From: Gemmatimonadota bacterium
GTDB lineage: Bacteria; Gemmatimonadota; Gemmatimonadetes; Palauibacterales; KS3-K002
DNA: 64,000 bases
Assembly (NCBI GenBank): GCA_020344215.1
Contig: CP070815.1
Location: 3,321,296 to 3,385,295 of the forward strand
Direction: 5' to 3'
Below, piece by piece: positions 1 to 15,391 of this stretch (position 1 is the stretch's first letter; each line of letters begins with the position of its first letter). Position numbers and translations under genes: made by a program. Below the pieces are notes generated by a model that saw nothing but the letters and a program-made list of their open reading frames with translations, did not search any database and was not told the DNA's origin.

Positions 1-93
1 CTCAGCGCACCTGAACGCCCGGCGACGTTCGAGCCGCTGGGCGCCGACATGGACTACATCTGCCTCGTCATGCCGCTCCGGCTGATGGAGTAA
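1..93 (+). CDS. 3' end of an unidentified CDS (partial, runs off the window start)
   Basis: Frame 1 is open from base 1 to TAA at 91-93 (..GADMDYICLVMPLRLME*). A hairpin follows at 125-147. Too short to assign a function. Confidence 0.3.
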   Translation, partial: LSAPERPATFEPLGADMDYICLVMPLRLME

Positions 94-124
94 CGCGCGC
101 GCCGCTGCAGCCAGCGTACAGTGA

Positions 125-147
125 AAAGGGGGCTGCACGCCCCCTTT
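125..147. terminator. Bidirectional hairpin terminator between convergent genes
   Basis: Perfect 9-bp stem AAAGGGGGC (125-133) / GCCCCCTTT (139-147) with 5-nt loop TGCAC. There is a T-run after the hairpin on the minus strand and a partial T-run on the plus strand. Confidence 0.6.
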
Positions 148-176
148 CTCGTTCCAGGTTTGCCGCCCCGCGGCGC

Positions 177-1388
177 CTACTCGTAACGCAACGCGACGAT
201 GGGGTCCATGCGGGCGGCGCGCCGCGCGGGGTAGATCCCGAAGAATAGACCGACCGCCGCCGAGAAGCCGAGCGCCAGTACGACCGCGGCTGGCGCCACT
301 GCAGTGTTCCAGTTGGCAAAGTGCGAGAGCCCGAGCGCCGCAGCGGCACCGGCGAACAATCCGAACAGGCCGCCGAACATACAGAGGGTCAGCGCCTCCG
401 CCAGGAACTGGAAGAGGATGTTGCGCCTTGTCGCACCCATGGCTTTGCGGACGCCGATCTCCCGCGTGCGCTCAGTCACCGAGACGAGCATGATGTTCAT
501 GATCCCGATGCCACCCACCATGAGACTCACGAGGGCGATCCCCGCCAGCAGGATGGAGAAGGTTCGGGTGGTCTCCTCGAAGGTGGACATCAAGTCGGCC
601 CGGTTGCGAATGGAGAAGTCGTTCTCGACGCCCGGTGCCAGTCGGTGCTCCCGCCGAATGATCCGCTCGATCTCCACGACCGCCTGGTTCACCAACGCAG
701 GTGAGATGACCTCCAGCGTCAAGGAGGACAACCGATCGCTCCCGCTGATGCGGTAGCGCGCGGTAGAGAGCGGCATAAGGGCCCGGTCGTCGACGCTGTA
801 AAAGCCCCCCTGTTCGCCCGAGCGTGCTAGGACCCCGATGACCTCGAAGGGTATGGCGCGGATCCGGATAGTCTGTCCGACAAGCTGCTCCGGGTAGTCG
901 GTCAGCCGCGCGGCGAGCTGCGAGCCGACGACCGCCACCGTCCTGCGGGCGGCCATGTCCGATTCGCTGATGAAGCGGCCGTATGCCAACTCGACGCCCT
1001 GCACATGGAGGTACTCGGGGACGGTGCCGATAGTCCTGGCACTGACGTTCCGGTTGAGGAGCTCGATCTGGAGCTCCGCGCTGGACTCGGGAACGACCGC
1101 GGAAAGCAGCTGCGCCTCGGACTTGAGGGCCTCGTAGTCGTCAACCTCGAGGAACGCGCCACCGGCGGCCCCGACGCCGCGATGCCAGCGGTGTCCCGAG
1201 GAGACCGTCAGCTGGTTCGTGCCCAGCGACTCGATCTGGTCCTGCACGGCGCGCTGCGCTCCCTCGCCCATGGCTACCACGGTGATCACGGCACCTACGC
1301 CGATGATGATCCCCAGCATCGTGAGGAATGAGCGCATCTTGTTGGCGCGGAGCGCGGAGAGCGCGACCTTGATTGTCTCCCAGATCAT
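177..1388 (-). CDS. MacB-type ABC transporter permease (MacB periplasmic core domain + FtsX TM bundle), no fused ATPase domain
   Basis: The N-terminus MIWETIKVALSALRANKMRSFLTMLGIIIGVGAV is the classic MacB/FtsX-family opening. It is followed by a large periplasmic segment and a C-terminal FtsX-like region (REIGVRKAMGATRRNI). ATG at 1388 is chosen because the upstream gene stops at 1393. About 403 aa, so the permease only. Confidence 0.85.
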   Translation of the reverse strand: MIWETIKVALSALRANKMRSFLTMLGIIIGVGAVITVVAMGEGAQRAVQDQIESLGTNQLTVSSGHRWHRGVGAAGGAFLEVDDYEALKSEAQLLSAVVPESSAELQIELLNRNVSARTIGTVPEYLHVQGVELAYGRFISESDMAARRTVAVVGSQLAARLTDYPEQLVGQTIRIRAIPFEVIGVLARSGEQGGFYSVDDRALMPLSTARYRISGSDRLSSLTLEVISPALVNQAVVEIERIIRREHRLAPGVENDFSIRNRADLMSTFEETTRTFSILLAGIALVSLMVGGIGIMNIMLVSVTERTREIGVRKAMGATRRNILFQFLAEALTLCMFGGLFGLFAGAAAALGLSHFANWNTAVAPAAVVLALGFSAAVGLFFGIYPARRAARMDPIVALRYE

Positions 1389-1392
1389 GCTT

Positions 1393-2829
1393 CTAGCTCC
1401 CTTGTCTCTGCATGCCGGGGACCCCGCTCCCACGGAACCGCTGGAAACGCTCGAGCAACTCGGCCTGGTCCCGCAGTAAGGCCGCAGTCGGCAGCAGGCA
1501 GACCGAGTCCCCCTCCTGCAGACCGGAGATCACCTCGATGCTCTCCCAGTCCGTCACGCCCAATTGCACGGGCACGGGGAAGATCTCGGCATCCCGCAGC
1601 ACGAACACCACACCGGCGGTCGTGCCGCTGTTCGTGCGTTGCGGGCGCTGCCCCGGACCTGCCCCTGGACCCTGACCCTGCATGAACCTTTGGCGCAGCT
1701 CGTCGACCTGCCGCTGCTCCTCCGGCGTTAGCTGCTCGCCGCTGCGGGCCTTCTGCATGAGTTCTCGAATCTGTTCGCGCGTCAGCTCCTGTGGGCCTTG
1801 GCCGTCGGAGCCTGCGGCCGGGCCAAACCGCGCGGCGGCCTCCTGGGGCGTGTTGGCCGCCAGGAGGTTTCCGAACGACGCGCCGTCGATGCCGAGGGCG
1901 AGCTCGGCGACATCGCGGGCGTCGTCGGTCGGATGGACGGCCTGCGTCGGCACGGCGATGACGTTCTCGGCGCCGGCCACCCGGATGGTCACCTCCGCGC
2001 TCATGCCGGGCTTGAGCAGACCTTCCCGGTTCGCGATGCGGATGATCACCGGGAACATCGTGACATTCTGTGTGACCTGTGCCTGCGGCTCGATCTTGAG
2101 GACCCGTCCCTGGAAAGCCCGGTCGCGGTAGGCCTCCACGGAGATGTCGGCGAGCATGTCGGGCTGCACTCGGCCGATGTCGGTCTCGTCGACCAGGGTG
2201 CGCACCTGCACTTCGCTTAGGTCGGCCATAGTCATGAGGAGCGTGCCGCCGCCCACGACCTGGGTCGCCGAGGAGATCACGTTCCCAACCTCGACGGTCC
2301 TGGCGATGATCGTGCCGGAGATCGGCGCGCGGATCGTCGTTTCCGACATCCGCTCCCTGGCGGTCTCCAGAGCCGCCTGCGAGCGGACGAGCTGCGCCCT
2401 GGCGTTCGCATGCTCCAGCTCGGCCTGCTCGAAGTCCTGATCGCTGATGATCTCCTGCTCGCGCATCCGCTGGGCCCGCTCGAGCTGAGACTCGGCGATC
2501 TTGAGCCGCGCCTGGGCCACTTCGAGGTCCGCTTCGGCCTGGGCCAGCCCCTGGCGCGCGTCCACCCGATCGACCTGAACGAGCAACTGGCCTTGCTCGA
2601 CAAGGTCACCGGTCTCGACCGGCAATTGCAGAATCTCACCGGAGGCTTTGGACTTGATCTCCACCGTCGTCACCGGCTCGAGGATGCCCGCGGCCTCCGC
2701 CGAGATGGAGAGCGTCTGCTGCCGGGCGGCCACCACCTGGAACGGGCGGCCCTCTTCCGCCTCCTCGCAGGCCGCGTTGATCAGCGCGAAGATCACCGCA
2801 CCGACCGTCAAGTACCTTCGTGTCTTCAT
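1393..2829 (-). CDS. Efflux transporter periplasmic adaptor subunit (HlyD/MacA-type membrane fusion protein)
   Basis: N-terminal signal/lipobox-like MKTRRYLTVGAVIFALINAAC. Biotinyl-lipoyl-like segment (SGEILQLPVETGDLVEQGQLLVQVD), a long coiled-coil hairpin, then beta-barrel segments. The position directly upstream of the MacB-type permease fits. Confidence 0.85.
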   Translation of the reverse strand: MKTRRYLTVGAVIFALINAACEEAEEGRPFQVVAARQQTLSISAEAAGILEPVTTVEIKSKASGEILQLPVETGDLVEQGQLLVQVDRVDARQGLAQAEADLEVAQARLKIAESQLERAQRMREQEIISDQDFEQAELEHANARAQLVRSQAALETARERMSETTIRAPISGTIIARTVEVGNVISSATQVVGGGTLLMTMADLSEVQVRTLVDETDIGRVQPDMLADISVEAYRDRAFQGRVLKIEPQAQVTQNVTMFPVIIRIANREGLLKPGMSAEVTIRVAGAENVIAVPTQAVHPTDDARDVAELALGIDGASFGNLLAANTPQEAAARFGPAAGSDGQGPQELTREQIRELMQKARSGEQLTPEEQRQVDELRQRFMQGQGPGAGPGQRPQRTNSGTTAGVVFVLRDAEIFPVPVQLGVTDWESIEVISGLQEGDSVCLLPTAALLRDQAELLERFQRFRGSGVPGMQRQGS

Positions 2830-3269
2830 GATCTATCTTGTTCCTCTCGGTTGCCGTTGCCGTGGCGGCGGTCGACTTCCCTCTCGTGGCGCTCACGCTG
2901 TCTCTGGAGCAGGGCGTCGTAGTTGGCCGCCTGCTCTTCCGTCAGCACAGCGCGGATCTCGGCACGCAGCTGCTCTTGCAGCTCTTCGTACCGTGGGCGC
3001 ACCTCGCGCCAGATGCTGGAGATCTGCTCGCGGTACTCCTCCACGACCACCTGGACCTGCGCCTGCTGTTCCTCGTCGAGCTCGAGTTGGGCGGACAGCC
3101 AATCCAAGTAGCTGCGCCTGCGATCGCGGTCGCCGGAGCGCCCGCGCTGCCCGGACGACGCCGTTCGCTCGCCGACCAGCATGCGGTCCACTGCTGCGCC
3201 GGCGACGCCGCCCAGCAGGAGCACGGCGACAAGGAGGGCGAGCGCCCAGGCCTTAGATTTCCCGTTCAT
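2826..3269 (-). CDS. Periplasmic Spy/CpxP/ZraP-like protein (LTxxQ-motif, heavy-metal-resistance-type family)
   Basis: Signal peptide MNGKSKAWALALLVAVLLLGGVAGAA. Helical, Glu/Gln/Arg-rich body with LTEEQ and LDEEQ motifs. 4-nt overlap with the downstream adaptor gene. Confidence 0.55.
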   Translation of the reverse strand: MNGKSKAWALALLVAVLLLGGVAGAAVDRMLVGERTASSGQRGRSGDRDRRRSYLDWLSAQLELDEEQQAQVQVVVEEYREQISSIWREVRPRYEELQEQLRAEIRAVLTEEQAANYDALLQRQRERHEREVDRRHGNGNREEQDRS

Positions 3270-3275
3270 CGGCCT

Positions 3276-3704
3276 TCACCGCTGTTCAACGTTCTCGGGA
3301 ACATCGGCGCCGTTCCCGTTCCTCTCCAGCAAAGCCGCGGCAGCGACGGCCTCGGCGTCCGGCTCCGTCAACGCCACCAGCATCGCCGGCAGCCCATCGC
3401 TCTCGGCGGCCCCACTCAGCACGTCTTCCAGGACGACCGGCTGAGACAGGTCGCCCTGCCAGGCCTGCCACGGCTGGAGCGCGCCTGCGAGTACAGCCAG
3501 CGCGATGCTCGCGGCAACCAATCCCGGCCGGCCCCACGCCGCCAGAACCTCCCACGACGAGGACGTGCGCCGACGCCTGGCCAGCGGCAGCTCGGCGCTG
3601 GCCAAGATGCGCAGCCGCGCCGCGCGCCGTGCGGCGTCGCTGCGCTGCGGCGTCCTGAGCAGTTCGAGCTCATCGATTCGCCGATCGTCATCGGAGTGAA
3701 CCAT
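3276..3704 (-). CDS. Putative single-pass membrane anti-sigma factor
   Basis: Lies immediately downstream of the ECF sigma gene. One hydrophobic span (GLVAASIALAVLAGAL). No recognisable zinc-binding HxxxCxxC motif, so the call rests on position only. Confidence 0.35.
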   Translation of the reverse strand: MVHSDDDRRIDELELLRTPQRSDAARRAARLRILASAELPLARRRRTSSSWEVLAAWGRPGLVAASIALAVLAGALQPWQAWQGDLSQPVVLEDVLSGAAESDGLPAMLVALTEPDAEAVAAAALLERNGNGADVPENVEQR

Positions 3705-3720
3705 CTTCTTACCTCTCTCC

Positions 3721-4290
3721 TCAGGAGCGGGGCTGGTACTCCTTCAAGAAATCCCGCAGCATCCGCCGCGCCCGCGACAGGTGGGAGCGGCAGGTCCCTT
3801 CCGGGATCTCGAGTACGCGAGCGATCTCGGGGTGCGTGAAGCCCTCCAAATCGTGAAGGATCACCACCGTCTCCAACTCAGCCGGCAGCGAGCTCAGGGC
3901 CTCGGCGAGTCGACCGCGCAGCTCGGCCCGTTCCGTGTCGACCGCCGGGCCGCCCGGCGCCGCCGCCGTCAGCGGCACGTCCTCCATCCGCCTGCGGGCC
4001 AGGTACTTCCGCCGGTTAAGGGCGGCGTTGACCAGCAGGCGGTAGAACCACGCTCCGAACGAGCTGCCCGGCTCCAGGGAATCGATCCGCTCCAGCGCGC
4101 GGATGAAGGCGTCGTGCACGAGGTCCTCCGTATCCTCCACGTGCTGGAGGAAGCCGTAGGCGACAGCGAACGCCTGGTCGGCGTACCGTGTTAGGAGAGC
4201 GCCAAACGCCTCACGGTCGCCGCGCCGGACGCGGGCGACAAGCTCGGGCTCATCGCTGACGGGGGGCAGGGCCGCGCTGTCGACGGCCAT
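3721..4290 (-). CDS. ECF-type RNA polymerase sigma factor (sigma-70 family, regions 2 and 4)
   Basis: 189 aa. Region 2 (EDLVHDAFIRALERIDS...FGAWFYRLLVNAALNRRK) and region 4 HTH (HDLEGFTHPEIARVLEIPEGTCRSHLSRARRML). Confidence 0.85.
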   Translation of the reverse strand: MAVDSAALPPVSDEPELVARVRRGDREAFGALLTRYADQAFAVAYGFLQHVEDTEDLVHDAFIRALERIDSLEPGSSFGAWFYRLLVNAALNRRKYLARRRMEDVPLTAAAPGGPAVDTERAELRGRLAEALSSLPAELETVVILHDLEGFTHPEIARVLEIPEGTCRSHLSRARRMLRDFLKEYQPRS

Positions 4291-4389
4291 CGATCCGCCT
4301 TTCTAACACCTGGTGAACCGGGAGCGTTGGGGCATGCCGCCCCGCCGGACAGGTTGGCAACCCTTGAACATTCGTCTAGCTTGAAGGTT

Positions 4390-4671
4390 ATGGCGATGCA
4401 ACCTGCGGGTCACCCCCAAGCTCGAGAGGATGTCTTGTTTCGGCAGGTGGACGACGAGTGGGTTGTGTTCGATCCCGCCGCGAACGAGCTCCACGTCCTG
4501 AACCTCGCTGCCGCCCTCATCTGGAGTCATTGCACAGGCGAGCACGCGCCTGACGAGATCGCCGGGGCTCTCCAGGAAGCGTACGGCATAGAGTTGGAGC
4601 GGGCGGCGGCCGACGTCCAGGCCACACTCGAGCGTTTCCGGGAGGCCGGGCTCCTGCGTCGCGACGGTTAG
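4390..4671 (+). CDS. PqqD-family protein (RiPP recognition element-like peptide chaperone)
   Basis: VLFRQVDDEWVVFDPAANELHVLNLAAALIWSHCTGEHAPDEIAGALQEAYGIELERAAADVQATLERFREAGLL matches the PqqD-family pattern over its full length. ATG at 4390 is preceded by GAAGG. An upstream TTG at 4327 is an alternative start. Confidence 0.75.
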   Translation: MAMQPAGHPQAREDVLFRQVDDEWVVFDPAANELHVLNLAAALIWSHCTGEHAPDEIAGALQEAYGIELERAAADVQATLERFREAGLLRRDG

Positions 4672-4675
4672 CAGG

Positions 4676-5845
4676 ATGTCCACTCTCGACTACCTCAACT
4701 TCCTCGCCGACACCCCGCGGGTCGATGCGTTCCGGCGTGCCATCGAGACGACGGTGTCACCCGGCCAGCTGGTGCTCGATCTCGGCACGGGTATCGGGAC
4801 CTATGCCCTGTTCGCGGCACGGGCCGGTGCACGGGTCCTCGCCGTAGAATCGGATCCAGTGATCGACATCGCTCGTGGGTTGGCGGCCGACAACGGGCTC
4901 GCCGCCCAGATCACCTTCCTGCACGGCCGTACCGAGCGGCTGGAACCGCCTGAGCCGGCCGACGTCCTCGTGTTCGAGGACTTCGCGCCGCACCTCTATC
5001 ATCCAGAGACAGCCAAGGTACTCCTCGATGTTAGGGACCGCTGGCTGAAGCCGGGCGCCAGCTCGATCCCCCGGGCGATCCGGGTCATGGCAGCGCCGGT
5101 CTGCTGCCCGGAGACCTACGCAGCCGTAACACCTTGGCCGGACGATGAGGTGTACGGCTTGGACATCCAGCGCCTTTCGCACGAGTTGCTCAACCGCCTC
5201 CACTCAGCTTCCTGGAGTCGAGAGGTACTACTGGCCGAACCGGCAGAGGTGGCCCGTGTGGACCCGCTGGCGCTGGACTCCCTCGGCCTCGATATCGAGG
5301 CGTGCTGGCGGGTCACGAAGCCGGGCGAGGTTCACGGTCTGGGGCTGTGGATCGACCTCGACCTGGCCGATGGGGTGCTCTACTCCAACGCGCCGGCGGG
5401 TCGTTCGAGCGGGTGGAGCCAACAGCTCCTGCCGCTGGTCGAGCCGCTGGGAGTGCAGGCCGGGGAAGAGGTGCGGGGGCGGATCGCCACGCTGGGCGCG
5501 TCGCCGCGGGATCCGGAGTGGTGGCGCTGGTGGGTGAGCGCCGGGGCAGGGGAGCGGGAGGGGAACACGTTTCGCGGGATTCCGTTGTCGCTGACCCGGC
5601 TGTGCGAGGCGCGGCTGGACCGCAGGCCCAGGCTCACGCCCCGGGGCCACATCCGGCGCGGGGCGCTGGACTTGATGGACGGGAGACGTACTATCAGAGA
5701 GATCGCCCGTGAGCTACTTGCCCGCTTCCCGGAACTAGGCAGTGAGGCGGAGGGGTATAGACTCATGGCCCGGCAGCTTGACGCGGCGCACGCCGAGCTG
5801 GCCCCGGAGCCGCGCGACACATCGCCTGAGGTGAGGTCGGGATGA
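4676..5845 (+). CDS. Class I SAM-dependent methyltransferase with a PRMT-like fold and a C-terminal PqqD/RRE-like domain
   Basis: Motif I VLDLGTGIGTYALFAARAGARVLAVE. ITFLHGRTERLEPPEPADVLVFE resembles the PRMT post-II region. SGWSQQLLPLVEPLGVQAGEEVRGRI parallels the PRMT THW-loop region (THWKQTVFY...GEEI.G.I). The C-terminal RRGALDLMDGRRTIREIARELLARFPELGSEAEGYRLMARQL resembles a PqqD winged helix. Confidence 0.7.
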   Translation: MSTLDYLNFLADTPRVDAFRRAIETTVSPGQLVLDLGTGIGTYALFAARAGARVLAVESDPVIDIARGLAADNGLAAQITFLHGRTERLEPPEPADVLVFEDFAPHLYHPETAKVLLDVRDRWLKPGASSIPRAIRVMAAPVCCPETYAAVTPWPDDEVYGLDIQRLSHELLNRLHSASWSREVLLAEPAEVARVDPLALDSLGLDIEACWRVTKPGEVHGLGLWIDLDLADGVLYSNAPAGRSSGWSQQLLPLVEPLGVQAGEEVRGRIATLGASPRDPEWWRWWVSAGAGEREGNTFRGIPLSLTRLCEARLDRRPRLTPRGHIRRGALDLMDGRRTIREIARELLARFPELGSEAEGYRLMARQLDAAHAELAPEPRDTSPEVRSG

Positions 5846-6078
5846 TGAGCCGACAGGACCCTACCCGGAGAGAATTCCTGCTCAAGCTTGCGCGGGGAGC
5901 TGCCTACACGGCGCCCCTGGTGGCGACGTTCGCTGTGGCGCCCGACCTGCTGGCCCAGGCGGGCTCGCTGCCGGGGCATCACCACACGAATCCCACGTCG
6001 ACGGCGCCGGCGACCGATCAACCGGGCGCGCCAGCCCCGTCGGAGAAGCACCCCCCGCCGAGCACGAAGAAAGAGTAG
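5842..6078 (+). CDS. 78-aa mini-protein with a twin-arginine (Tat) signal and a His/Pro/Thr/Ser-rich tail (candidate modified-peptide precursor)
   Basis: T-R-R-E-F-L-L-K matches the Tat consensus S/T-R-R-x-F-L-K. It is followed by the h-region GAAYTAPLVATFAVAP and an AQA|G cleavage motif. The start ATG overlaps the methyltransferase stop (ATGA at 5842-5845), with GAGGTGAGG upstream. It is a short ORF, so coding status is not proven. Confidence 0.5.
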   Translation: MMSRQDPTRREFLLKLARGAAYTAPLVATFAVAPDLLAQAGSLPGHHHTNPTSTAPATDQPGAPAPSEKHPPPSTKKE

Positions 6079-6090
6079 CCGGACCGGCTT

Positions 6091-6915
6091 GTGTCACCCG
6101 CGTCGATCCTCCACTACAGGTTCCCCGGGAGCCGCCGGACGCTAGGCGTGCGCCTGGAGGCGCCTGGGCTGCTCCCGCTGCTGGCGAGCTTCTACGGCAA
6201 CTACCGCTGCCCTGACCCAGGCGGTCGAGTCGGGTGCACCATCTCCTTGGAGCGAGAGGACGGGTCGTACCGGCTCGTGGGACCGAGCGGCGCTTGGGAG
6301 GCGGCAGACGAAGGCGAAGCGGTCGTGTACTACGAGTCGGAGCTCACCGGGGCCCTGCTCGAGGACGCGACCGCTTTCGTGCACCTGCACGGGGCCGCGG
6401 TTTGCGACGGCTCGCGCTGCCTGCTGCTCGTCGGGCCTTCCGGCGCAGGCAAGTCGACGCTCACCCTCGGACTCCATCTCGGTGGCATGCGTGCTTTGGC
6501 CGACGATGCCCTGCTCATCGACCCGCTGACCGGTGAGGTCCACCCCTTCGATCGCTCGATACGGGTCCACGAGGTGAGCCTCCGCAGCCTCGAGGTCGAC
6601 CCGCGTAAGGTGAGCGGTGCGCGGCTGTGTGGTCCGTACCTCTGGCTCAGCCCCGCGAAGGTGGGGCGCGATGGGGCCGGCTCGCAGCGGCCGGCGGCGC
6701 TGGTGTTCCTCGAAGCTGGCCAGGCGACGTCACTCGAGCGCTTGAGCGCTGCGGAGGTGCTACGGCAGTTGCTGCTAGCGCGACTGGGCGACGCACCGGA
6801 GCGGGATTTCGAGTGCCTGGCTCGAGTGGCGGCAGAAGTCTCGGGCTATCGTCTGGCTTACAGCGATTTCCGGGAGGCGCTGGATGAACTGGCGCGGCTA
6901 CGGGAGAGTCGCTAG
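6091..6915 (+). CDS. HPr kinase/phosphorylase C-terminal-domain-like P-loop kinase (HprK-related)
   Basis: LHGAAVCDGSRCLLLVGPSGAGKSTLTLGLHLGGMRALADDALLID matches the HprK catalytic core (Walker A GxSGxGKS followed by the ..LvaDD motif). GTG start 12 nt after the mini-protein stop. Confidence 0.7.
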   Translation: MSPASILHYRFPGSRRTLGVRLEAPGLLPLLASFYGNYRCPDPGGRVGCTISLEREDGSYRLVGPSGAWEAADEGEAVVYYESELTGALLEDATAFVHLHGAAVCDGSRCLLLVGPSGAGKSTLTLGLHLGGMRALADDALLIDPLTGEVHPFDRSIRVHEVSLRSLEVDPRKVSGARLCGPYLWLSPAKVGRDGAGSQRPAALVFLEAGQATSLERLSAAEVLRQLLLARLGDAPERDFECLARVAAEVSGYRLAYSDFREALDELARLRESR

Positions 6916-7382
6916 CCGTCTGGGTCCGCTCCGTAGACGTCCGACCAGAGATCCCGATCTTCTTGCACCCGCACCTGGTGGACCCTGACGCCGGCCGGTA
7001 GCCGCGGGCCGACCTTGCGCAGGATGTGGGCGGCCAGGTTCTCGGTGGTCGGCAGGTCGCGTCCCGGGCTGAATTCCTCGACGGCGGAATTGATGTGCCG
7101 GTTGTGAAGGCGGCGCACGACCTCCTCGTCCAAGAGGCGATCGAGCTGCGGAAGGTCCATGACCATGCCGGTCTCGGGATCGATGGGCCCGGCGACCGTC
7201 ACCTCGCAGCGGTAGTTGTGCCCATGCCCCTCGGCAAGGGCAGCCTCGCCGAACCGGCGCCGGTTCTCGTCCGCGCTCCACTCGGGTCGGTAGTAGCGGT
7301 GCGAGGCCGAGAAGTGGACAGCGCGAGTCAGGTAGCCGGTCGTCATGCTCGCCTCAGGGTTGGTGGGTTTCGCGTGGCTCAC
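6912..7382 (-). CDS. queD: 6-carboxy-5,6,7,8-tetrahydropterin synthase / 6-pyruvoyl-tetrahydropterin synthase family
   Basis: FSASHRYYRPEWSADENRRRFGEAALAEGHGHNYRCEVTVAGPIDPETGMVMDL is typical of the PTPS/QueD family. An alternative start lies at 7346 (MTTGYL). Confidence 0.85.
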   Translation of the reverse strand: MSHAKPTNPEASMTTGYLTRAVHFSASHRYYRPEWSADENRRRFGEAALAEGHGHNYRCEVTVAGPIDPETGMVMDLPQLDRLLDEEVVRRLHNRHINSAVEEFSPGRDLPTTENLAAHILRKVGPRLPAGVRVHQVRVQEDRDLWSDVYGADPDG

Positions 7383-7397
7383 CTAACTTAGACGCTG

Positions 7398-8309
7398 ATG
7401 CGGGAGCCAGCTACGGCCCGGAAGGTGCCGAAAGTGGCGCAGTTCCTCGACCTGAGCGACTACGCGCGGCCGCTCGCCGTGTGGGTCGCCCGGCGCCTGC
7501 GCGACACATCGGTTACAGGACCCGACGTCACGGTGGTGTGGGGCATCATCGGGTTCGTGGGTGCCTTCTGCTATGCCGTCGGTGGGTACCAGTACGCGCT
7601 GCTGGGTGCCGGCCTGTTACAGGTCAAGAACATCTTGGACGCCGTCGACGGCTCGCTGGCGCGCCTACAAAGCCGGCCGTCCCGCGTGGGCCGCTTCCTC
7701 GATTCGATCGGTGACGCGGTCATCGCCGCCGCCGTCTACGCGGCCCTCGCCATCGCCGTCGCCCGCGACCGGCCCGTGGTGTATGCGACCCTGCTGGCCG
7801 CCGCGGCGCTGGTGCTCAGCCTCCTCCAGGGCTCCGTCTACAACTACTACCAGGTCCGCTACCGGCAACGGCAGGGCGGTGACCGAACCAGCCTGGTCAA
7901 GGAGAGGTTGACCGAGTACGACGAGATTCACTACGAGGACCGACCTTTGGCCCTCGGCTTGCTGCGTGCGCTGATCCAGGCCTACAACGGGATTTACGGA
8001 TGGCAGGACGTGCTCGTGCAGCGAGTCGACCGCTGGGCCGCCGCGCCGCTGCTGGCGGCGGGTCGTGAGGAGTTCGCGGACGAGTTCCGGGACGACCCGC
8101 GCCTGCTTACGGTTCTCAGCGCTCTGGGTCCGGGGATGCAGATCCTTATCCTCGATCTGTACACGATCGCTGGCGTCCGCCATCTCGGCCTCGCTCTCGA
8201 GCTCTTTCTCTGGACGATCGCGCTCGGCGGTACGCTTTACGCCGCTGCGGTCATACTACGGCTGCGTCGTACCGCGGTGAGGGAATCTCGGATTGCGAGT
8301 GGGGAATAG
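7398..8309 (+). CDS. CDP-alcohol phosphatidyltransferase family protein
   Basis: Signature D-x2-DG-x2-AR...G-x3-D-x3-D is present as LDAVDGSLARLQSRPSRVGRFLDSIGDAVIAAAVY. Multi-pass membrane protein. The last ~10 codons lie inside repeat element A. Confidence 0.8.
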   Translation: MREPATARKVPKVAQFLDLSDYARPLAVWVARRLRDTSVTGPDVTVVWGIIGFVGAFCYAVGGYQYALLGAGLLQVKNILDAVDGSLARLQSRPSRVGRFLDSIGDAVIAAAVYAALAIAVARDRPVVYATLLAAAALVLSLLQGSVYNYYQVRYRQRQGGDRTSLVKERLTEYDEIHYEDRPLALGLLRALIQAYNGIYGWQDVLVQRVDRWAAAPLLAAGREEFADEFRDDPRLLTVLSALGPGMQILILDLYTIAGVRHLGLALELFLWTIALGGTLYAAAVILRLRRTAVRESRIASGE

Positions 8310-8483
8310 AGAGGTGGTTTGGGGATTATCGGATATGGATTCGGGGATTCGGGGAGTTCGGGAAGTACGAAGTCGGTTGCGTTGCCGCCGCTTCTCACCT
8401 TCCCCACCTCCCCGGATCGACATGTGAGAATTCCCAAACCACTTGACCGTTCGCCAATTCGACAATTCCCCGTTCCCCCGGAT
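8278..8483. repeat. GGGGAWTC-rich inverted-repeat intergenic element, copy A
   Basis: Tandem GGATTCGGGGA / GGATTCGGGGAG at 8337-8356 and GAGAATTCCC at 8426-8435. GGGGAAT/ATTCCCC-type motifs occur in opposite orientation in the two halves. The exact 12-mer GGATTCGGGGAG is shared with copy C. Confidence 0.6.
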
Positions 8484-10634
8484 ATGTTAGTGTCCATGGA
8501 TAGACGCCCTGAGACCCTCACTGCGATCTTCGAGCCCAAGGGTGTCGCCGTCGTCGGCGCCAGCCGCCGTACCGACACGATCGGCTACGTGATCCTCGAC
8601 AGCCTGCTTCGCGACGGGTACACCGGCGCCGTCTATCCGGTGAACCCACGCGCCGAGGTCGTTCACTCGATGCGGGCCTACCCTTCGATCGCCGATCTGC
8701 CCGGGCCCGTGGACTTGGCGGTCATCGTCGTGCCCAAGGAGCTGGTTCTTCAGGCGGCGAGCGAGTGTGGCGAGGCCGGGGTGAAGGGACTCGTCGTCAT
8801 ATCGGCCGGGTTCCGCGAGGTAGGTGGTGAAGGTGCTGAGCGGGAACGCGAGCTGCTGGCCGTAGCCCGCCAGTACGGCATGCGGATGGTGGGACCCAAC
8901 TGCATGGGCGTCCTCAACACTGATCCGGCGGTCTCGATGAACGCCACGTTCGCGCCAACGACGCCGCCGACGGGGAACGTCGCCTTCCTGAGCCAGTCGG
9001 GCGCCATGGGCGTGACGATCCTCGACTACGCCCGCGAGTACGGGATCGGCGTTAGCAAGTTCCTCAGCCTGGGTAACAAGGCCGACATATCGGGTAACGA
9101 CGCCCTCGAGTACCTGAAGGACGACGAGCGCACCTCGGTCATCCTCATGTACCTTGAGAGCTTCGGTAACCCGCGCCACTTCACCCGGATCGCCCGCGAG
9201 GTGACCCAGGTGAAGCCTGTGGTCGCCGTGAAGGCCGCACGTACCCGGGCCGGCGCGCGTGCGGGGAGCAGCCACACCGGTGCCATGGCGGGGCTGGACG
9301 TCGCCACCGACGCCCTCTTCGCCCAGTGCGGTGTCATCCGGGTGGACACGGTTGAGGGGCTCTTCGACATGGGGATGGGGTTCGGTAATGCGCCGCTCCC
9401 CAAGGGCAACCGGGTGGCGGTCGTCACGAATGCCGGCGGCCCGGGCATCATAATCGCCGACGCGCTGGAGTCTCAGGGGCTGGAGGTGGCGGAGCTCACG
9501 GAAGAGACGAAGACGCAGCTGCGCGAGCAACTGCCGGAGGAGGCGTCGGTCAACAACCCGGTGGATATGATCGCTAGCGCCGATGCCGACAGCTATCGAT
9601 CGGTGCTGGAGACGGTCTTGGAGGACCCCGGAGTCGACGCGGTCATCGCATCGTTCGTGCCGCCGGTGGGTGTGCACGCGGAGGACGTGGCCCGGGCGAT
9701 CACCGATACGGCGGCCGGTCGTGAGGAGCCGGCCATGGCCGTGCTCATGGGTCGCAAGGGGCTGCGCGAGAGCCGGGCACTGCTCAACGCCGCGAGCGTG
9801 CCCGCCTTTATCTTCCCGGAGTCGGCGGTGCGGGCGCTCGTGGGCATGGACCGCTACCGGCGCTGGCTGGAGCGCCCGGCGGGCCGGGTGCGTGTGTTCG
9901 ATGACGTCGAGAAGGGGCGGGTGGCGGGGATACTGGAGGGCGCGGAGTCCGCAGGCCGCCAGCGCTTGGGCGAGTACGACGCGCTCTCGCTGGTCGAGGC
10001 GTACGGCATACCCGTAGTGCCATCGCGACCGGCGGGGACGGCGGAGGAAGCCGTCAGGGCCGCTGAGCTGGTGGGCTTCCCCGTCGTGCTCAAGGTGATG
10101 GCGCCCGAGATCTCACATAAGTCGGAAGTCGGAGGTGTAATCGTCGGGCTGACCTCGGGGCGTGAGGTGAGGGGCGCCTACTACGAGATGATGGATCGCC
10201 TGGCCGGGAGCGGTGTGGGAAAGGATGCGGTCGAGGGCGTCCTCGTCCAACGCATGGTGAGCGGCGGCCGGGAGGCCATCATCGGGACCGCCTTCGACCC
10301 GAGCTTCGGGCCGCTGATCATGTTCGGGCTCGGCGGCATCTACGTGGAGGCTCTCGGTGACGTCGTCTTCCGGGTGCACCCTGTCAGCGACATCGACGCG
10401 GCAGAAATGATCCGCCAGGTGAAGGGCTACAGGCTGCTGGAGGGCGTACGTGGCGAGAAGGGTGTCGACGTCGACGCACTCCAGGAGGCGATTCAGCGAA
10501 TCAGCCAGCTGGTCGGCGACTTTCCGCAAATCGCCGAGCTCGATGTGAACCCGTTCGTCGCCTTTGAGCCCGGCAAGCGGCCGATAGCCTTGGACGCCAG
10601 GGTGGTGCTGGCCTCGCAGGCCGAATCGGAATGA
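8484..10634 (+). CDS. Acetate--CoA ligase family protein (ADP-forming acyl-CoA synthetase: CoA-binding + succinyl-CoA-ligase-like + ATP-grasp domains)
   Basis: IFEPKGVAVVGASRRTDTIGYVIL (CoA-binding). MVGPNCMGV and AFLSQSGAMG motifs. C-terminal ATP-grasp (PVVLKVMAPEISHKSEVGGV). Start set at ATG 8484; the upstream 55 codons of the track ORF are repeat-element sequence. Confidence 0.85.
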   Translation: MLVSMDRRPETLTAIFEPKGVAVVGASRRTDTIGYVILDSLLRDGYTGAVYPVNPRAEVVHSMRAYPSIADLPGPVDLAVIVVPKELVLQAASECGEAGVKGLVVISAGFREVGGEGAERERELLAVARQYGMRMVGPNCMGVLNTDPAVSMNATFAPTTPPTGNVAFLSQSGAMGVTILDYAREYGIGVSKFLSLGNKADISGNDALEYLKDDERTSVILMYLESFGNPRHFTRIAREVTQVKPVVAVKAARTRAGARAGSSHTGAMAGLDVATDALFAQCGVIRVDTVEGLFDMGMGFGNAPLPKGNRVAVVTNAGGPGIIIADALESQGLEVAELTEETKTQLREQLPEEASVNNPVDMIASADADSYRSVLETVLEDPGVDAVIASFVPPVGVHAEDVARAITDTAAGREEPAMAVLMGRKGLRESRALLNAASVPAFIFPESAVRALVGMDRYRRWLERPAGRVRVFDDVEKGRVAGILEGAESAGRQRLGEYDALSLVEAYGIPVVPSRPAGTAEEAVRAAELVGFPVVLKVMAPEISHKSEVGGVIVGLTSGREVRGAYYEMMDRLAGSGVGKDAVEGVLVQRMVSGGREAIIGTAFDPSFGPLIMFGLGGIYVEALGDVVFRVHPVSDIDAAEMIRQVKGYRLLEGVRGEKGVDVDALQEAIQRISQLVGDFPQIAELDVNPFVAFEPGKRPIALDARVVLASQAESE

Positions 10635-11467: not shown

Positions 11468-11565
11468 CGGCTCACTTCCCCGGGGAACTCGACTCAAGCA
11501 GTGGGTGTTTGCCGGAGGGGAAGCGGCGACCGTTGGTCGCTGCCGATCGTCACACGAGGGTAGGC

Positions 11566-11923
11566 ATGCAAGGCAAGCAGATAAGTGCGTTCGGCGCTCT
11601 ACTAGCCCTCGCTGTTGCCGCGGGGACAATTGGAGCCGGCCGTTCCGGCCAGAACGATAGTCTGGAGAGCGGTGGGCGGGCCGCGGCCTCGGTAGAGCCG
11701 CAGCAAGCTGTTGACATCGAGATACGTGAGTTCCGCTTCCGGGCCGACACCGTTCGGGTTCCGCTCGGCGCAAGTTCCTGAGGGCCTGGCCGGGGGGAAT
11801 GGCAAGCGCTCCGGGTTTTCCACAGGCTGGCCGCGACTGTGGAAAAGCGGCGGATCAGATGGACACGTACAGGTCGCCGCCTCTGGCATGAAATCGCCGG
11901 TCTGCCCATCTTGTATCTCCTGA
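11566..11923 (+). pseudogene. Possible frameshifted cupredoxin-like secreted protein
   Basis: Signal peptide MQGKQISAFGALLALAVAAG. AVDIEIREFRFRADTVRVPLGA resembles the first strands of cupredoxin/plastocyanin-like proteins. The frame stops at 11781, and an overlapping +1 ORF (to 11923) ends ..GHVQVAASGMKSPV, weakly like a copper-site end. Recollection-based and weak. Confidence 0.2.
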
Positions 11924-11957: not shown

Positions 11958-12752
11958 ATGGGCACGATCTGGAAGGGGCATGTCAGCTTCGGACTCGTGA
12001 ACATCCCGGTACGTGTGGAAAACGCCACGCGCGACACGACCCCAAGATTCCGCATGCTGCACGGCCGAGATAACTCGCCGGTGAAGACGGTGCGCGTCCG
12101 CCAGGGTGACGAGGAGCGTGTGGAATACAGGGAGTTGGTCCGGGGGTACGAATACGAGCCGGGCCACTACGTGATCCTCGACGATGAGGACTTCCGGCAG
12201 GTAGCGCTTCAGACCACACGGACAATAGACATCATGGATTTCGTGGATGAGTCGGAGATCGACTCGCGCTACTTTGAGAAGCCGTACTACCTGGAGGTGC
12301 AGCGAGGCGGCGAGAAGGCTTATGCCCTGCTCAGGAAGGCCATGCGTGAGACCGGCAAGGTGGCGGTGGCGAAGGTCGTCTTCCAGCGTCGCGAGCACCT
12401 GGCGGCAGTCAAGGTAGTGAACGACGTGCTGGTCCTGGATCTCATGCGCTTCGAAGACGAGCTCCGCCCGCTGAACACAGTCGAGACACCTGGGGAGGAG
12501 GGGTTGAGCGAGAGGGAAATCGCCATGGCGCTCCAGCTCGTCGAGCAGCTCTCTGCCAGCTTCGACCCGAAGAGCTACAAGGACGAGTACGCCGAGAAGC
12601 TGCTCGGGCGGATCCAGGCCAAGGTCGAGGGCCGCGAAGTAGCGCAGGTCCAAGAAACGGAACCGGTCGAGACGCAGGTGGTGGATCTCGTGGCCAGGCT
12701 GAAGGAGAGCCTCGAGCGCGCGGAAGGAGAGCGCCGCGCTGCAGACGGCTAG
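11958..12752 (+). CDS. ku: Non-homologous end joining protein Ku
   Basis: MGTIWKGHVSFGLVNIPVRV is the canonical bacterial Ku N-terminus. 264 aa. Adjacent to ligD. Confidence 0.9.
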   Translation: MGTIWKGHVSFGLVNIPVRVENATRDTTPRFRMLHGRDNSPVKTVRVRQGDEERVEYRELVRGYEYEPGHYVILDDEDFRQVALQTTRTIDIMDFVDESEIDSRYFEKPYYLEVQRGGEKAYALLRKAMRETGKVAVAKVVFQRREHLAAVKVVNDVLVLDLMRFEDELRPLNTVETPGEEGLSEREIAMALQLVEQLSASFDPKSYKDEYAEKLLGRIQAKVEGREVAQVQETEPVETQVVDLVARLKESLERAEGERRAADG

Positions 12753-12805: not shown

Positions 12806-15391
12806 GTGACGGACCTGGACCGATATCAGGAGAAGCGGGACTTCGCCCGCACGCCCGAGCCGGCCGGCTCGGAGCATGGGGCAGGGTCGCCGGAAGCGGC
12901 GCGCCGGTTCGTAGTGCAGAAGCACGCGGCGCGCCGCACGCATTTCGACTTGCGCCTCGAGATCGGCGGAATGCTCGTCAGCTGGGCCGTGCCGAAAGGG
13001 CCCAGCGCCGACTCGGATACGAAGCGGTTGGCCGTCCACGTCGAAGACCACCCGCTCGAGTACGGTGACTTCGAGGGGGTCATCCCGAGGGGCGAGTACG
13101 GCGCCGGTAGCGTGATTATCTGGGACCGGGGCCGCTACGAGCCGCTAGGTGAGACCGAGGACTCGGAGGAGGCGCTGCAGCGGGGTGTTCGGGAGGGGAA
13201 GCTCGACTTCGTTCTCTACGGTGAGCGGATGCGGGGTCGTTGGACTCTGGTGCGCATGAAAGGCCGGGAGACTGAGGACAGCTGGCTCCTGATCAAGAAG
13301 AAAGACGTTCACGCGGAGCCCGGTGACCCTGAAGGCCTCGTGGACCGCTACCGCGATTCCGTGGTGTCGGGCCGAGACCTTGATGATCCCGCACTCGGCG
13401 CGGGGGACCCGGGGCAGGATGCGGCCAGGCCCCCTGTAGATACGCGACCGATGCTGGCCGGGCGCGCCGAGACCCTGCCGGCCGGCGAGGCGTGGTGCTT
13501 CGAGCTGAAACTGGACGGAATAAGAGCCGCAGCTTGGGCCCAGCCCACCGGTCTGCTTCGGGTCTACTCGCGGCGCGGACACCGCCTGGAGTCGGCATTC
13601 CCCGAGATCGGCGACGCCCTCGAGCTGCTCGCCCGCCGCGCGGGCAGCGAGTTCGTCATCGACGGCGAGATCGTCGTGGCCGCCCCCGAGGGCGGCTCCC
13701 GCCTCGAGGACCTTCAGCCCCGTTTCAACCTCCGGGACCCTGGGGAAGTCGCGCGGGGCGCGAGAGCGCAGCCTGCCGAGATGCACGTCTTCGATCTCCT
13801 CTGGCTCGACGGCAAGGACTTGAGGGACCGGCCACTGTCCGAGCGAAAGGACCGGCTGCGCCACATCCTGAGATCGGCAGGTCACAACCTCCACTACGTT
13901 CCCCACGACCTCGCCAGCGGAAACGCCATGAAGACCCGCGCGCGCCGGGAAGGCTGGGAAGGCGTCGTCGCTAAGCGCCTCAAGAGTCGCTACCGCTCCG
14001 GCGAGCGCTCGCCGGACTGGCTCAAGGTGAAAGAGCTCGCCCGCCAGGAGTTCGTGGTGGGCGGCTGGACGGAGCCTCAGGGCAGCCGCCGCGGCTTCGG
14101 CGCGCTGGTGGTGGGCTACCACGACGAGGCCAGCGAGGGCATGCCGCTTCACTGCGCCGGCCGGGTCGGTAGCGGCTTCAGCGAAGCGGATCTACAGGCG
14201 ATAAGGGACAAGCTCAACTCCTTGGCACAGGAAGTCAGCCCCTTCGCCGAGGTACCTGAGGACGCGGAGGACGCCCATTGGGTCCGCCCCGAGCTCGTGG
14301 TCGAGGTGAAGTTCCAGGAATGGACCCGCGATGGCCGGCTGCGCCAGCCGGTCTTCCTGGGCCTACGTAGCGACGTGGACCCGGCCGGGGTGGTCCGGGA
14401 GGGTGGCTCTGCCGACTTGGCAACGGGCCCTCCGGTCGAGCTTACCGCCGAGATCGAGTCGCTGATCCAGACGCTCGAAGTGCTGGAGCGAGAGGGCGCC
14501 GACGCTGAAATCACGGTGGAGGGCCGGCGGCTTAAGGTCACGAACCTCCAGAAGGTCTTTTGGCCTGACATCGGGGCCACCAAGGGGGAGCTCTTGCGCT
14601 ACTACCTATCGGTGGCACCCGCGATACTGCCTGCGGTCGGCGCCCGGCCCCTTACCTTGGAGCGGTACCCCAACGGCATCGGCGGTGAGATGTTCTACCA
14701 GCAGCGGATGCCCGGGCCCGTACCGGAGGGGGTCCGCACCGTGACGCTGGAGCTCGACGGCGAGCCGGCCGAGCGAGTCATCGGCGGTGACGTCTATACG
14801 CTCCTTTATACGACACAGCTCGCGGCGATCTCACAGCACGTCTGGCCGTCCAAGCTCGAGACGCTCGACGACTTGGACTACGCCGTCCTCGATCTCGACC
14901 CTGGTGAGGACGTGCCCTTCTCCGCCGTGTGCGAGGCGGCCCTGGCAACCCACGAGCAGCTCCAGCGCCTCGGACTGCGCGGCTACCTGAAGACCTCCGG
15001 CGCGAGCGGGATGCACATCGTGATCCCGCTTCAGGCCGGCACGGGCTACGAGACCGGCCGCCTGCTGGCGGAGCTCGTCGCTCAGCTCGTCGCCGGGTCA
15101 CGCCCGCGGCTCACGACCGTGCAGAGGGTCGTCTCGAAGCGCGGTGCCCGCGTCTACCTCGACTTCCTCCAGAACCGCCGGGGTGCCACAGTGGCTTCCG
15201 CGTACTCAGTGCGGCCCAGACCGGGAGCGACGGTCTCCGCCCCCTTGAGCTGGATCGAAGTCGAGGGCGAGTTGAAGCCGGGCGACTTCAACCTGCGGTC
15301 GATGCGCGACCGCTTGGCCACCGTCGGCGATCTTTGGGTCGCGTGTCGCACCGATTCGAACGACGTACGCGAGGTTCTTGAGCTTCTGTGA
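12806..15391 (+). CDS. ligD: ATP-dependent DNA ligase D (phosphoesterase - ligase - polymerase/primase domains)
   Basis: PE domain (FVVQKHAARRTHFDLRLE...WAVPKGPS), ligase adenylation motif FELKLDGIRA, and a C-terminal LigD polymerase domain (VTNLQKVFWP...YLKTSGASGMHIVIPL). GTG start with AAGAAGG upstream. Confidence 0.9.
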   Translation: MTDLDRYQEKRDFARTPEPAGSEHGAGSPEAARRFVVQKHAARRTHFDLRLEIGGMLVSWAVPKGPSADSDTKRLAVHVEDHPLEYGDFEGVIPRGEYGAGSVIIWDRGRYEPLGETEDSEEALQRGVREGKLDFVLYGERMRGRWTLVRMKGRETEDSWLLIKKKDVHAEPGDPEGLVDRYRDSVVSGRDLDDPALGAGDPGQDAARPPVDTRPMLAGRAETLPAGEAWCFELKLDGIRAAAWAQPTGLLRVYSRRGHRLESAFPEIGDALELLARRAGSEFVIDGEIVVAAPEGGSRLEDLQPRFNLRDPGEVARGARAQPAEMHVFDLLWLDGKDLRDRPLSERKDRLRHILRSAGHNLHYVPHDLASGNAMKTRARREGWEGVVAKRLKSRYRSGERSPDWLKVKELARQEFVVGGWTEPQGSRRGFGALVVGYHDEASEGMPLHCAGRVGSGFSEADLQAIRDKLNSLAQEVSPFAEVPEDAEDAHWVRPELVVEVKFQEWTRDGRLRQPVFLGLRSDVDPAGVVREGGSADLATGPPVELTAEIESLIQTLEVLEREGADAEITVEGRRLKVTNLQKVFWPDIGATKGELLRYYLSVAPAILPAVGARPLTLERYPNGIGGEMFYQQRMPGPVPEGVRTVTLELDGEPAERVIGGDVYTLLYTTQLAAISQHVWPSKLETLDDLDYAVLDLDPGEDVPFSAVCEAALATHEQLQRLGLRGYLKTSGASGMHIVIPLQAGTGYETGRLLAELVAQLVAGSRPRLTTVQRVVSKRGARVYLDFLQNRRGATVASAYSVRPRPGATVSAPLSWIEVEGELKPGDFNLRSMRDRLATVGDLWVACRTDSNDVREVLELL

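Follow-up and report, generated by a model that had tools for sequence, protein, structure and literature searches.

A four-gene operon conserved across bacterial phyla encodes a candidate pathway for a modified, Tat-exported peptide

Four genes packed end to end in a Gemmatimonadota genome raise the question of what a PqqD-family protein, a methyltransferase (MT), a very small protein and a kinase related to HPr kinase could be making together. The genes lie in a stretch of 64,000 nucleotides of contig CP070815.1, which is referred to here over its whole length as the window, and an original prediction, made before any database search, had read them as a candidate peptide-modification pathway in which the small protein is modified in the cytoplasm and then exported. 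We found that region 4390-6915 is a genuine four-gene operon that has been kept in at least eight bacterial phyla, and we propose, with a probability of roughly 60%, that this operon makes a ribosomally made peptide with post-translational modifications (RiPP), small and secreted, whose export and processing are handled by the twin-arginine translocation (Tat) system and signal peptidase I. Taken as a whole, the original prediction is partly supported, and a peptide-modification pathway acting on the small open reading frame (ORF), one that includes no lasso cyclase, YcaO, Lan or radical SAM enzyme, is the best reading of the locus.

The ORF list and a reading of the sequence place four ORFs on the plus strand, at 4327-4671 (ORF1), 4676-5845 (ORF2), 5842-6078 (ORF3) and 6091-6915 (ORF4). 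ORF1 and ORF2 are separated by 4 nt (4672-4675), ORF2 and ORF3 overlap through an ATGA at 5842-5845, where an alternative ATG at 5845 shares 1 nt with the TGA, and 12 nt (6079-6090) lie between ORF3 and ORF4. Re-reading the coordinates and junctions in this way reproduced the four same-strand ORFs and the near-absence of spacers that had first been described for the locus. A Shine-Dalgarno-like run, GAGGTGAGG, is found 5 nt 5′ of the small ORF, and the ORFs of the cassette are translationally coupled. Antisense ORFs are numerous in the region as well, because its GC content of 68% yields them.

The first gene encodes a RiPP recognition element (RRE) of the PqqD family. Its longest reading frame opens at a TTG at 4327 and an ATG at 4390 gives a protein of 93 amino acids (4390-4671, plus strand); since the homologues measure 87-93 amino acids, the ATG at 4390 is probably the true start. 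Profile searches matched the protein to PF05402 (1.3e-15), to lasso_PqqD_Strm (2.3e-10) and to TIGR04353, the 'HPr-rel-A system PqqD family peptide chaperone', the last with 42.3 bits, which passes the cut-off of 35 bits. Its closest solved structures are the lasso B1 RREs, which bind YxxPxL leaders, namely TfuB1 (6jx3, 2.8e-4) and TbiB1.

The fourth gene encodes an HprK-related P-loop kinase of 274 amino acids (6091-6915, plus strand), which aligned with model positions 11-280 of the 280 in TIGR04352 HprK_rel_A (1.3e-18). The profile of the kinase family matched the HprK/P structure 1ko7 (1.4e-9), and Foldseek searches with the AlphaFold2 (AF2) model, which has a predicted local distance difference test (pLDDT) score of 92.6, retrieved phosphoenolpyruvate carboxykinase (PEPCK; 5e-7) and HprK/P (2e-4), indicating a PEPCK/HprK fold. 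The Walker A motif, G115-PSGAGKST, lies at 6433-6459; H100, G120, K121 and D138 are invariant in the family, and the pair D138-D139 is conserved. A search for homologues of the kinase returned near relatives in the Gemmatimonadota only, every one of them annotated as 'hypothetical'. Two distant kinase homologues of 372-378 amino acids (P0095 and P0096) bear a PqqD domain (PF05402) themselves, and these natural RRE-kinase fusions support an RRE-guided action of the kinase.

The second gene (4676-5845, plus strand) encodes an S-adenosylmethionine (SAM) methyltransferase with the fold of the protein arginine methyltransferases (PRMTs), its Rossmann domain and beta-barrel occupying residues 1-297. 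The protein matched the Methyltransf_25 (2.4e-9) and PRMT_C (1.7e-8) profiles, and its AlphaFold model (pLDDT 82) found PRMT6, CARM1 and PRMT3 as the best Foldseek matches (E ~1e-25, TM score 0.77, ~26% identity; 2.8e-25 for PRMT6). Its homologues come mostly from Gemmatimonadota, in line with the phylum of the window. Across the MT family GxGxG is invariant, E58 is conserved, and E101 and W247 are present in at least 90% of members. Of the residues that bind arginine in PRMTs, the double-E loop keeps its first Glu, its second acidic residue being displaced or absent, and the THW loop keeps its Trp, with other residues in place of T and H. The SAM motif of the MT is intact, as are the P-loop and the His and Asp residues of the kinase.

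At the C-terminus of the MT, the last 85 residues aligned with the PqqD family in hhalign (94.9%, E 4.4e-8), the alignment being restricted to helices alpha1-alpha3. The corresponding domain (residues ~305-373, 5588-5794, plus strand) consists in the AF2 model of helices 322-333, 340-350 and 357-373, with no three-stranded beta-wing, and a complete second RRE at this position was rejected because the helices alone are present and the wing is absent. On the evidence of the model, what is left here is the degenerate remainder of an RRE once fused to the MT. This helical domain is missing altogether from the MTs of about 13 cassettes, which measure 312-343 amino acids. At one locus (L037:7995-11850) the MT gene appears split, with positions 2-318 of its hidden Markov model (HMM) at 7995-9956 and the C-terminal part at 11482-11850, directly 5′ of the peptide gene, which suggests a disrupting insertion, possibly a mobile element.

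Three peripheral relatives of the MT, found in true lasso peptide clusters, shed light on this domain. The L004 cluster (1-8274) encodes a B2 protease, a cyclase, the kinase, the MT and an NTP_transf_5 nucleotidyltransferase, and two other clusters (L042:7709-9233 and L053:832-2215) encode a cyclase and an MT to which a whole PqqD domain is fused (PF05402, 8.7e-17). L042 has a kinase as well, while the L053 contig begins inside the cyclase gene, so that its kinase is uncheckable there. The precursors of all three clusters are typical lasso precursors with YxxPxL leaders. These RRE-fused relatives tie the MT family to RRE-presented peptide substrates, and the full PqqD fusions of L042 and L053 explain the C-terminus of the window MT as a decayed fused RRE. 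Together with the profile searches, these results support the assignments of a full-length PqqD protein, an HPr-kinase homologue and a PRMT-type MT with which the analysis had started. The additional claim of a second PqqD-like winged helix on the MT stood as far as the relationship to PqqD is concerned and fell as far as the wing is concerned, a remnant of three helices being all that is present.

The third gene (5842-6078, plus strand) encodes a putative precursor peptide of 78 amino acids, or 77 from the ATG at 5845. Its leader or signal region comprises residues 1-40 (5842-5961) and its variable core residues 41-78 (5962-6075), GSLPGHHHTNPTSTAPATDQPGAPAPSEKHPPPSTKKE, as delimited by comparison with the family. 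The leader carries a Tat motif, T8-R9-R10-E-F-L-L-K15 (RR at 5866-5871), followed by a stretch of 16 uncharged residues within which lies an RRE-type motif, Y22-T-A-P25-L-V27 (5905-5922), and ends in an AxA-type site, A38-Q-A40 (5953-5961), with predicted cleavage at AQA|G. Motifs of the form [Y/W]xxPx[L/V] are bound by the RREs of lasso peptides and of linear polyphosphorylated peptides (LPP) (PMC13381572). Because the hydrophobic (h) region holds the Y-x-x-P-x-V motif, residues 1-40 appear to be a Tat signal and a RiPP leader at once. Comparison of 36 leader codons between the window and 12 relatives of its clade counted 212 synonymous and 53 non-synonymous differences, indicating that ORF3 is translated and that its leader is under purifying selection.

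The family to which this peptide belongs was built by searching a collection of 5.8 billion proteins with a 32-member profile, which retrieved about 100 further proteins and brought the family to 144 sequences, 70 of them non-redundant. The retrieved homologues are 55-174 amino acids long and all annotated as 'hypothetical', and a Pfam domain was found in none; since the profile retrieves short proteins only, the conserved signal exceeds a generic Tat motif. All 144 peptides contain [K/R]R-x-F-[L/I]-(K-K), a spacer and [Y/W/F]-x-x-P-x-[V/I], with R10, F12 and P25 invariant, R9 nearly so, and the RR-x-F-L-K-K motif at a median position of residue 10. The only library models in Pfam and NCBIfam that matched the peptides are models of Tat signals, namely TIGR01409 (7 of 32 members) and TIGR02811 (19 of 32), and beyond these the family is unannotated. 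More than half of the non-redundant peptides (38 of 70, the window's included) have RR and an AxA-like site as well as 13 or more uncharged residues in a row that include YxxP. The earlier call of a Tat signal on the 78-residue ORF is therefore borne out both by the peptide itself, with its TRREFLLK, uncharged stretch and AQA, and by the Tat models that match its family.

The cores of the peptides are hypervariable, with 16% Gly, 15% Pro, 9% Ser and 8% Lys, and 25 of the 70 contain clusters of His or Met. By its position, S42 (5965-5967) is a candidate phospho-acceptor, and a Ser or Thr lies 1-3 residues past the AxA-like site in 18 of the 38 full Tat-type peptides. Many Tat-type peptides carry APW-x-x-PPPG(Q) or HPPPS near the C-terminus, which resembles the C-terminal PPGQNKS shared by the lasso precursors of L042 and L053; both kinds of peptide may be recognized or modified at this site. 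RRxFLKK and YxxP are separated by 5-6 residues in all cassettes that contain the MT and by 2 residues in three that lack it (L060, L061 and L063). A prediction from spacer length held in two test cases (P0179 and P0149), and phylogeny confounds the comparison, since the three loci without an MT are closely related. One clade (L006:4677-6098, L046:9457-10890 and L039:1718-3175) has a multi-transmembrane protein of ~470 amino acids encoded between the PqqD and peptide genes, with a weak C-terminal CN_hydrolase match resembling Lnt, and the peptides of this clade show an acidic stretch after YxxPxV and HHH(G)EK at the end. This arrangement hints at an added acylation step on the external side of the membrane; no such protein was found in the 64-kb window by HMM or phmmer search.

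We then asked how far the four genes travel together. A scan with the MT-family profile, limited to one genome per species, yielded 52 loci, which were scanned with HMMs built for five components. The PqqD protein, MT, small peptide and kinase occur together in ~45 of these loci, in at least eight gene orders, and the groups represented are Gemmatimonadota, Planctomycetota, Nitrospinota, KSB1, Poribacteria, Zixibacteria, Pseudomonadota and, from the Acidobacteriota, Thermoanaerobaculia. The small peptide ORF is present in every complete cassette. Because the same gene set recurs in so many loci and orders, the cassette goes beyond chance adjacency. Clustering of the flanking ORFs of all loci showed that the families shared across phyla are the cassette set only, namely PqqD, MT, peptide, kinase and NTP_transf_5; an SpI-like leader peptidase recurs in the flanks of no locus. 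The neighbourhood, short Tat-leader ORF included, is thus conserved across phyla, which is not the pattern of chance adjacency that the original prediction had allowed for. The NTP_transf_5 nucleotidyltransferase is encoded in most loci outside the clade of the window, and HMM and phmmer searches found it neither across the 64-kb window nor in that clade.

In a reverse test starting from distant homologues of the peptide, their contigs again encoded enzymes of the cassette. One locus (L062) contains PqqD, kinase, MT, peptide and NTP_transf_5, and another (L064) contains NTP_transf_5, a 290-residue protein without a Pfam match, PqqD, MT and peptide, the 290-residue protein occupying the position that the kinase has in the same gene order at L032, L045 and L048. 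Three loci (L060, L061 and L063) contain the peptide, kinase, PqqD and NTP_transf_5 with no MT; in L060 the PqqD gene was not called, and an uncalled gap lies at its position. These loci indicate that the core of the wider system consists of the peptide, the RRE, the kinase and the nucleotidyltransferase, with the MT as an accessory of a large subset. The clade of the window retained the MT and lost the nucleotidyltransferase.

How the parts might work together is suggested by LPP, described in Bacillota by Popov et al. (Nat Commun, May 2026; PMC13381572). The LPP system comprises a precursor with a YxxPxV leader, a discrete RRE (LppB), an HprK-like kinase (LppK), an SpI-like leader peptidase of the archaeal, SipW-like type, an MsbA-like exporter and an NTP transferase; LppK puts several phosphates on Ser3 of the linear core, and the leader is cut off by the signal-peptidase-I-type enzyme (PMC13381572). 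In the pathway that we propose for the window, the substrate would be the 77/78-residue product of 5842-6078. The discrete PqqD protein would bind Y22-x-x-P25-x-V27 of its leader in the cytoplasm and present the peptide to the HprK-like kinase, which would phosphorylate a Ser hydroxyl. The best candidate is S42, since it lies two residues past AQA|G and so parallels Ser3 of LPP, and repeated phosphorylation is possible by comparison with LPP and paeninodin. PqqD would likewise present the peptide to the PRMT-fold MT for methylation. The modified peptide would then be exported by the general Tat system, and housekeeping signal peptidase I would remove the leader, the two taking the place of the ABC exporter and SpI-like peptidase that LPP dedicates to these tasks. 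Such a route would explain why cassettes come without an exporter or a protease; neither a leader protease nor an exporter was found with the cassette in the 64-kb window.

A more specific version of this model is that PqqD binds the h-region of the Tat signal and retains the peptide in the cytoplasm until the kinase and the MT have finished, whereupon Tat and signal peptidase serve as exporter and leader peptidase; we put this forward tentatively, at somewhat less than even odds. If it is right, then to our knowledge no RiPP family with a Tat-signal leader, no RRE in the role of a 'proofreading' chaperone for Tat and no PRMT-fold enzyme in the tailoring of peptide natural products was known before.

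Several observations weigh against parts of the proposed pathway. The kinase scored 67.1 bits with TIGR04352, for which the cut-off is 200 bits, and its match to Hpr_kinase_C (PF07475) was 0.005, far under the curated cut-off. The methyl acceptor cannot be read from the MT, because neither the THW His nor the second double-E Glu is conserved. Three targets were weighed, namely the Arg residues of the RR motif, a Lys or His beside the candidate Ser, and the phosphate itself, which methylation would cap, and none was favored by the sequence alone. The first Ser after the AxA-like site ranges from 1 to 12 residues away. Since the clade of the window is without NTP_transf_5, its product would differ from those of its relatives, and neither other Tat substrates nor TatA or tat genes were found in the 64-kb window. 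Finally, 18 of the 70 non-redundant peptides, of the Planctomycetota type, lack an AxA site and have KR with an uncharged stretch of only 12 residues, and the 'clade 3' peptides carry a charged, acidic stretch after YxxPxV. These two groups suggest that the motif may serve enzyme recognition besides, or instead of, export.

The latter possibility is the starting point of an alternative in which the same RRE-guided pathway operates, and RR-x-F-L-K-K, rather than being a working Tat signal, is what the kinase, the MT or the helical domain of the MT recognizes in the leader, so that the product remains cytoplasmic or membrane-bound or exits by another route. The Planctomycetota-type peptides fit this well, as they belong to full cassettes and yet have an invariant KR, a 12-residue stretch broken up by R/K and FEMAE, and no AxA site; so do the acidic residues immediately past YxxPxV in clade 3, the invariant F12, which makes the motif stricter than typical Tat signals, and the way the spacer before YxxP varies with presence of the MT. 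The motif is nevertheless an exact Tat consensus placed close to the N-terminus, more than half of the peptides continue it with a long uncharged region and an AxA-like site, and Tat-signal HMMs are the sole library matches. The lack of an exporter or protease in the cassettes, and the Tat-like signal of a protein adjoining the HPr-rel-A cassette of Sphingomonas, also speak for export, and on balance we regard the recognition-only alternative as unlikely, if far from negligible.

A different doubt concerns the role of the product and is compatible with the mechanism proposed here: rather than an antibiotic-like compound, the peptide might be a His- or Met-rich one that requires modification for its maturation and acts in the periplasm in metal binding or envelope stress, and it might be controlled in the clade of the window by a divergent extracytoplasmic function (ECF) sigma/anti-sigma pair. 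His and Met are at about twice background in the cores, the clusters noted above are HH/HxH or MxM (for example GHHH, MGMGMG and MMMQMMM), the cassettes of the clade have genes for an ECF sigma factor, an anti-sigma factor and a CpxP/Spy-like LTXXQ protein directly upstream, and genes of MacAB-type efflux lie upstream in the window itself. The ECF and LTXXQ neighbours are limited to this clade, however, and may be inherited synteny, 45 of the 70 cores have no His or Met cluster, and the conserved core includes no metal-related gene, which makes such a role improbable in our view. The least probable alternative, which is strongly disfavoured, is that the locus is a decaying lasso cluster minus its cyclase and protease, or that a housekeeping MT and a P-loop protein are neighbours by chance and share no function. 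It could draw on the relatives of the MT and kinase in the lasso clusters L004, L042 and L053, on the degenerate RRE domain of the MT and on the loss of NTP_transf_5 in the clade of the window. Decay or coincidence would not be expected to leave a cyclase-free cassette in at least eight phyla and many gene orders, a leader under purifying selection, translationally coupled ORFs and two enzymes whose catalytic motifs look intact. A pathway that modifies the small peptide for export by Tat therefore remains the reading that we prefer.

The genes around the operon were also considered. Upstream of the cassette and divergent from it, on the minus strand, 3721-4290 encodes an ECF sigma factor, 3276-3704 a putative anti-sigma factor, 2826-3269 a periplasmic protein of the LTXXQ/CpxP-like kind, and 177-2829 a MacB permease with an HlyD-type adaptor. 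The sigma/anti-sigma/LTXXQ trio, as well as the PTPS and CDP-alcohol transferase genes downstream, recur solely in the clade of the window and are treated as inherited synteny on that account; we rejected all of them as parts of the system, and the trio might regulate the cassette in this clade. A few kb downstream, Ku (11958-12752) is paired with a LigD-like ligase of several domains (12806-15391), a bacterial non-homologous end-joining pair; synteny with the relative L001 includes Ku, and the L001 sequence stops before the position of LigD. The cumulative GC skew has its minimum within 3000-5000 of the window, at ~3.5-4.5 kb, where gene orientation switches. In L001 (1341-4102) the same sigma/anti-sigma/LTXXQ block has dnaA and dnaN directly upstream. 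Neither DnaA nor DnaN was found in the 64-kb window, and this difference points to a rearrangement near a possible origin region.

If the proposed pathway is correct, phosphorylated linear peptides of the LPP kind would reach beyond Bacillota into little-studied phyla such as Gemmatimonadota, Planctomycetota and Nitrospinota, an RRE/Tat-leader system would be widespread in uncultured Gram-negative phyla, and a bacterial PRMT-fold enzyme would join the chemistries of peptide tailoring. The Gram-negative versions would need no dedicated protease or exporter, the leader itself being the Tat signal. The uncharacterised HPr-rel-A cassette of NCBI would gain a candidate substrate family, and the precursor motif, [KR]R-x-F-L-K-K, a spacer and YxxPxV, can be used directly for genome mining. 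With four genes in 2.5 kb, the operon is also a small, testable system for the coupling of modification to Tat export.

Comparison with known systems shows which features are shared and which are new. In the window, the gene of a PqqD-like RRE neighbours that of a short precursor whose leader is conserved and whose core varies, the arrangement expected of RRE-dependent RiPPs. Literature searches combining Tat signals, RiPPs and HprK, or PRMTs and lasso peptides, found no description of this combination, and a 2025 structure-based survey of RREs does not mention kinase, Tat or Gemmatimonadota cases.

The proteins TorD, DmsD and NapD are proofreading chaperones of the Tat pathway. If our model is right, the window's PqqD protein would resemble them as a small cytoplasmic protein that holds a Tat signal while the passenger matures, although its winged helix is unrelated to them in fold and no cofactor is inserted. 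The MT resembles the type I PRMTs (PRMT1/3/6 and CARM1) in its Rossmann domain and beta-barrel, SAM motif, first double-E Glu and THW Trp; in contrast to these, it has no conserved second Glu or THW His, it carries the extra helical remnant of an RRE, and it is encoded in a bacterial operon with a putative peptide substrate.

In paeninodin-type lasso peptides, HprK homologues phosphorylate the C-terminal Ser of the precursor, sometimes repeatedly, and in pseudomycoidin an NTP_transf_5-type enzyme attaches hexoses to the phosphate (PMC8498205). These pathways share with ours an HprK-like kinase, with or without NTP_transf_5, and a PqqD-type B1 RRE that recruits through a [Y/W]xxP leader (PMC8498205). 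However, the window lacks the Asn-synthetase-like cyclase and the B2 protease, neither of which was found across its 64 kb with our own HMMs or with phmmer using the L004 proteins, in keeping with the absence of lasso cyclase and protease noted at the outset. Moreover, its precursor has neither the Thr(-2)/Gly1...Asp/Glu pattern of lasso cores nor a C-terminal Ser.

The cassette also resembles the HPr-rel-A system (TIGR04352, TIGR04353 and NTP_transf_5), in that its PqqD protein scores above the TIGR04353 cut-off, its kinase aligns over the full length of TIGR04352 and its relatives have NTP_transf_5. It differs in the low score of its kinase (67 vs 200 bits), in the absence of the nucleotidyltransferase from the window, and in the MT and the small YxxP-bearing peptide family, which lie outside the annotated system. 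As a reference HPr-rel-A cassette we used the single match obtained by tblastn against plasmids, on Sphingomonas parapaucimobilis plasmid NZ_CP155749.1 (L059:7936-10559), which encodes PqqD, HprK-related kinase A and the nucleotidyltransferase. This cassette is preceded by a hypothetical protein of 161 amino acids with a Tat-like signal, TSRRMLMLGAVGASTVIAVRPALAQT, and no YxxP motif, and it is possible that this protein is the substrate of the canonical HPr-rel-A system. The window does not group with SynChlorMet, as ScmC gave an E value of 0.15, ScmD gave 26.5 vs 100 bits, and no radical SAM gene is adjacent; a literature search found no publication on HPr-rel-A, SynChlorMet or TIGR04352/3.

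LPP and the HPr-rel-A cassette share the logic of a discrete RRE and a kinase with the window, which leaves the original statement that the locus matches no known RiPP class outdated. The likeness to LPP covers the linear precursor, YxxPxV leader, variable core, discrete lasso-type RRE and HprK-like kinase, as well as the NTP_transf_5 transferase in most relatives of the window cassette, and the position of S42 after AQA|G would be the counterpart of the core Ser3 of LPP near the junction of leader and core. On the other hand, LPP is stated to be restricted to Bacillota (PMC13381572), whereas the system described here occurs in Gram-negative and uncultured phyla. Its kinase and RRE are distant in sequence from those of LPP, its cassette has neither the SpI-like peptidase nor the MsbA-like exporter, and the NTP transferase is missing in the clade of the window. 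The novel elements are the Tat-type leader and the added PRMT-fold enzyme, and with these the window cassette looks like an undescribed Gram-negative cousin of the LPP systems of Bacillota.

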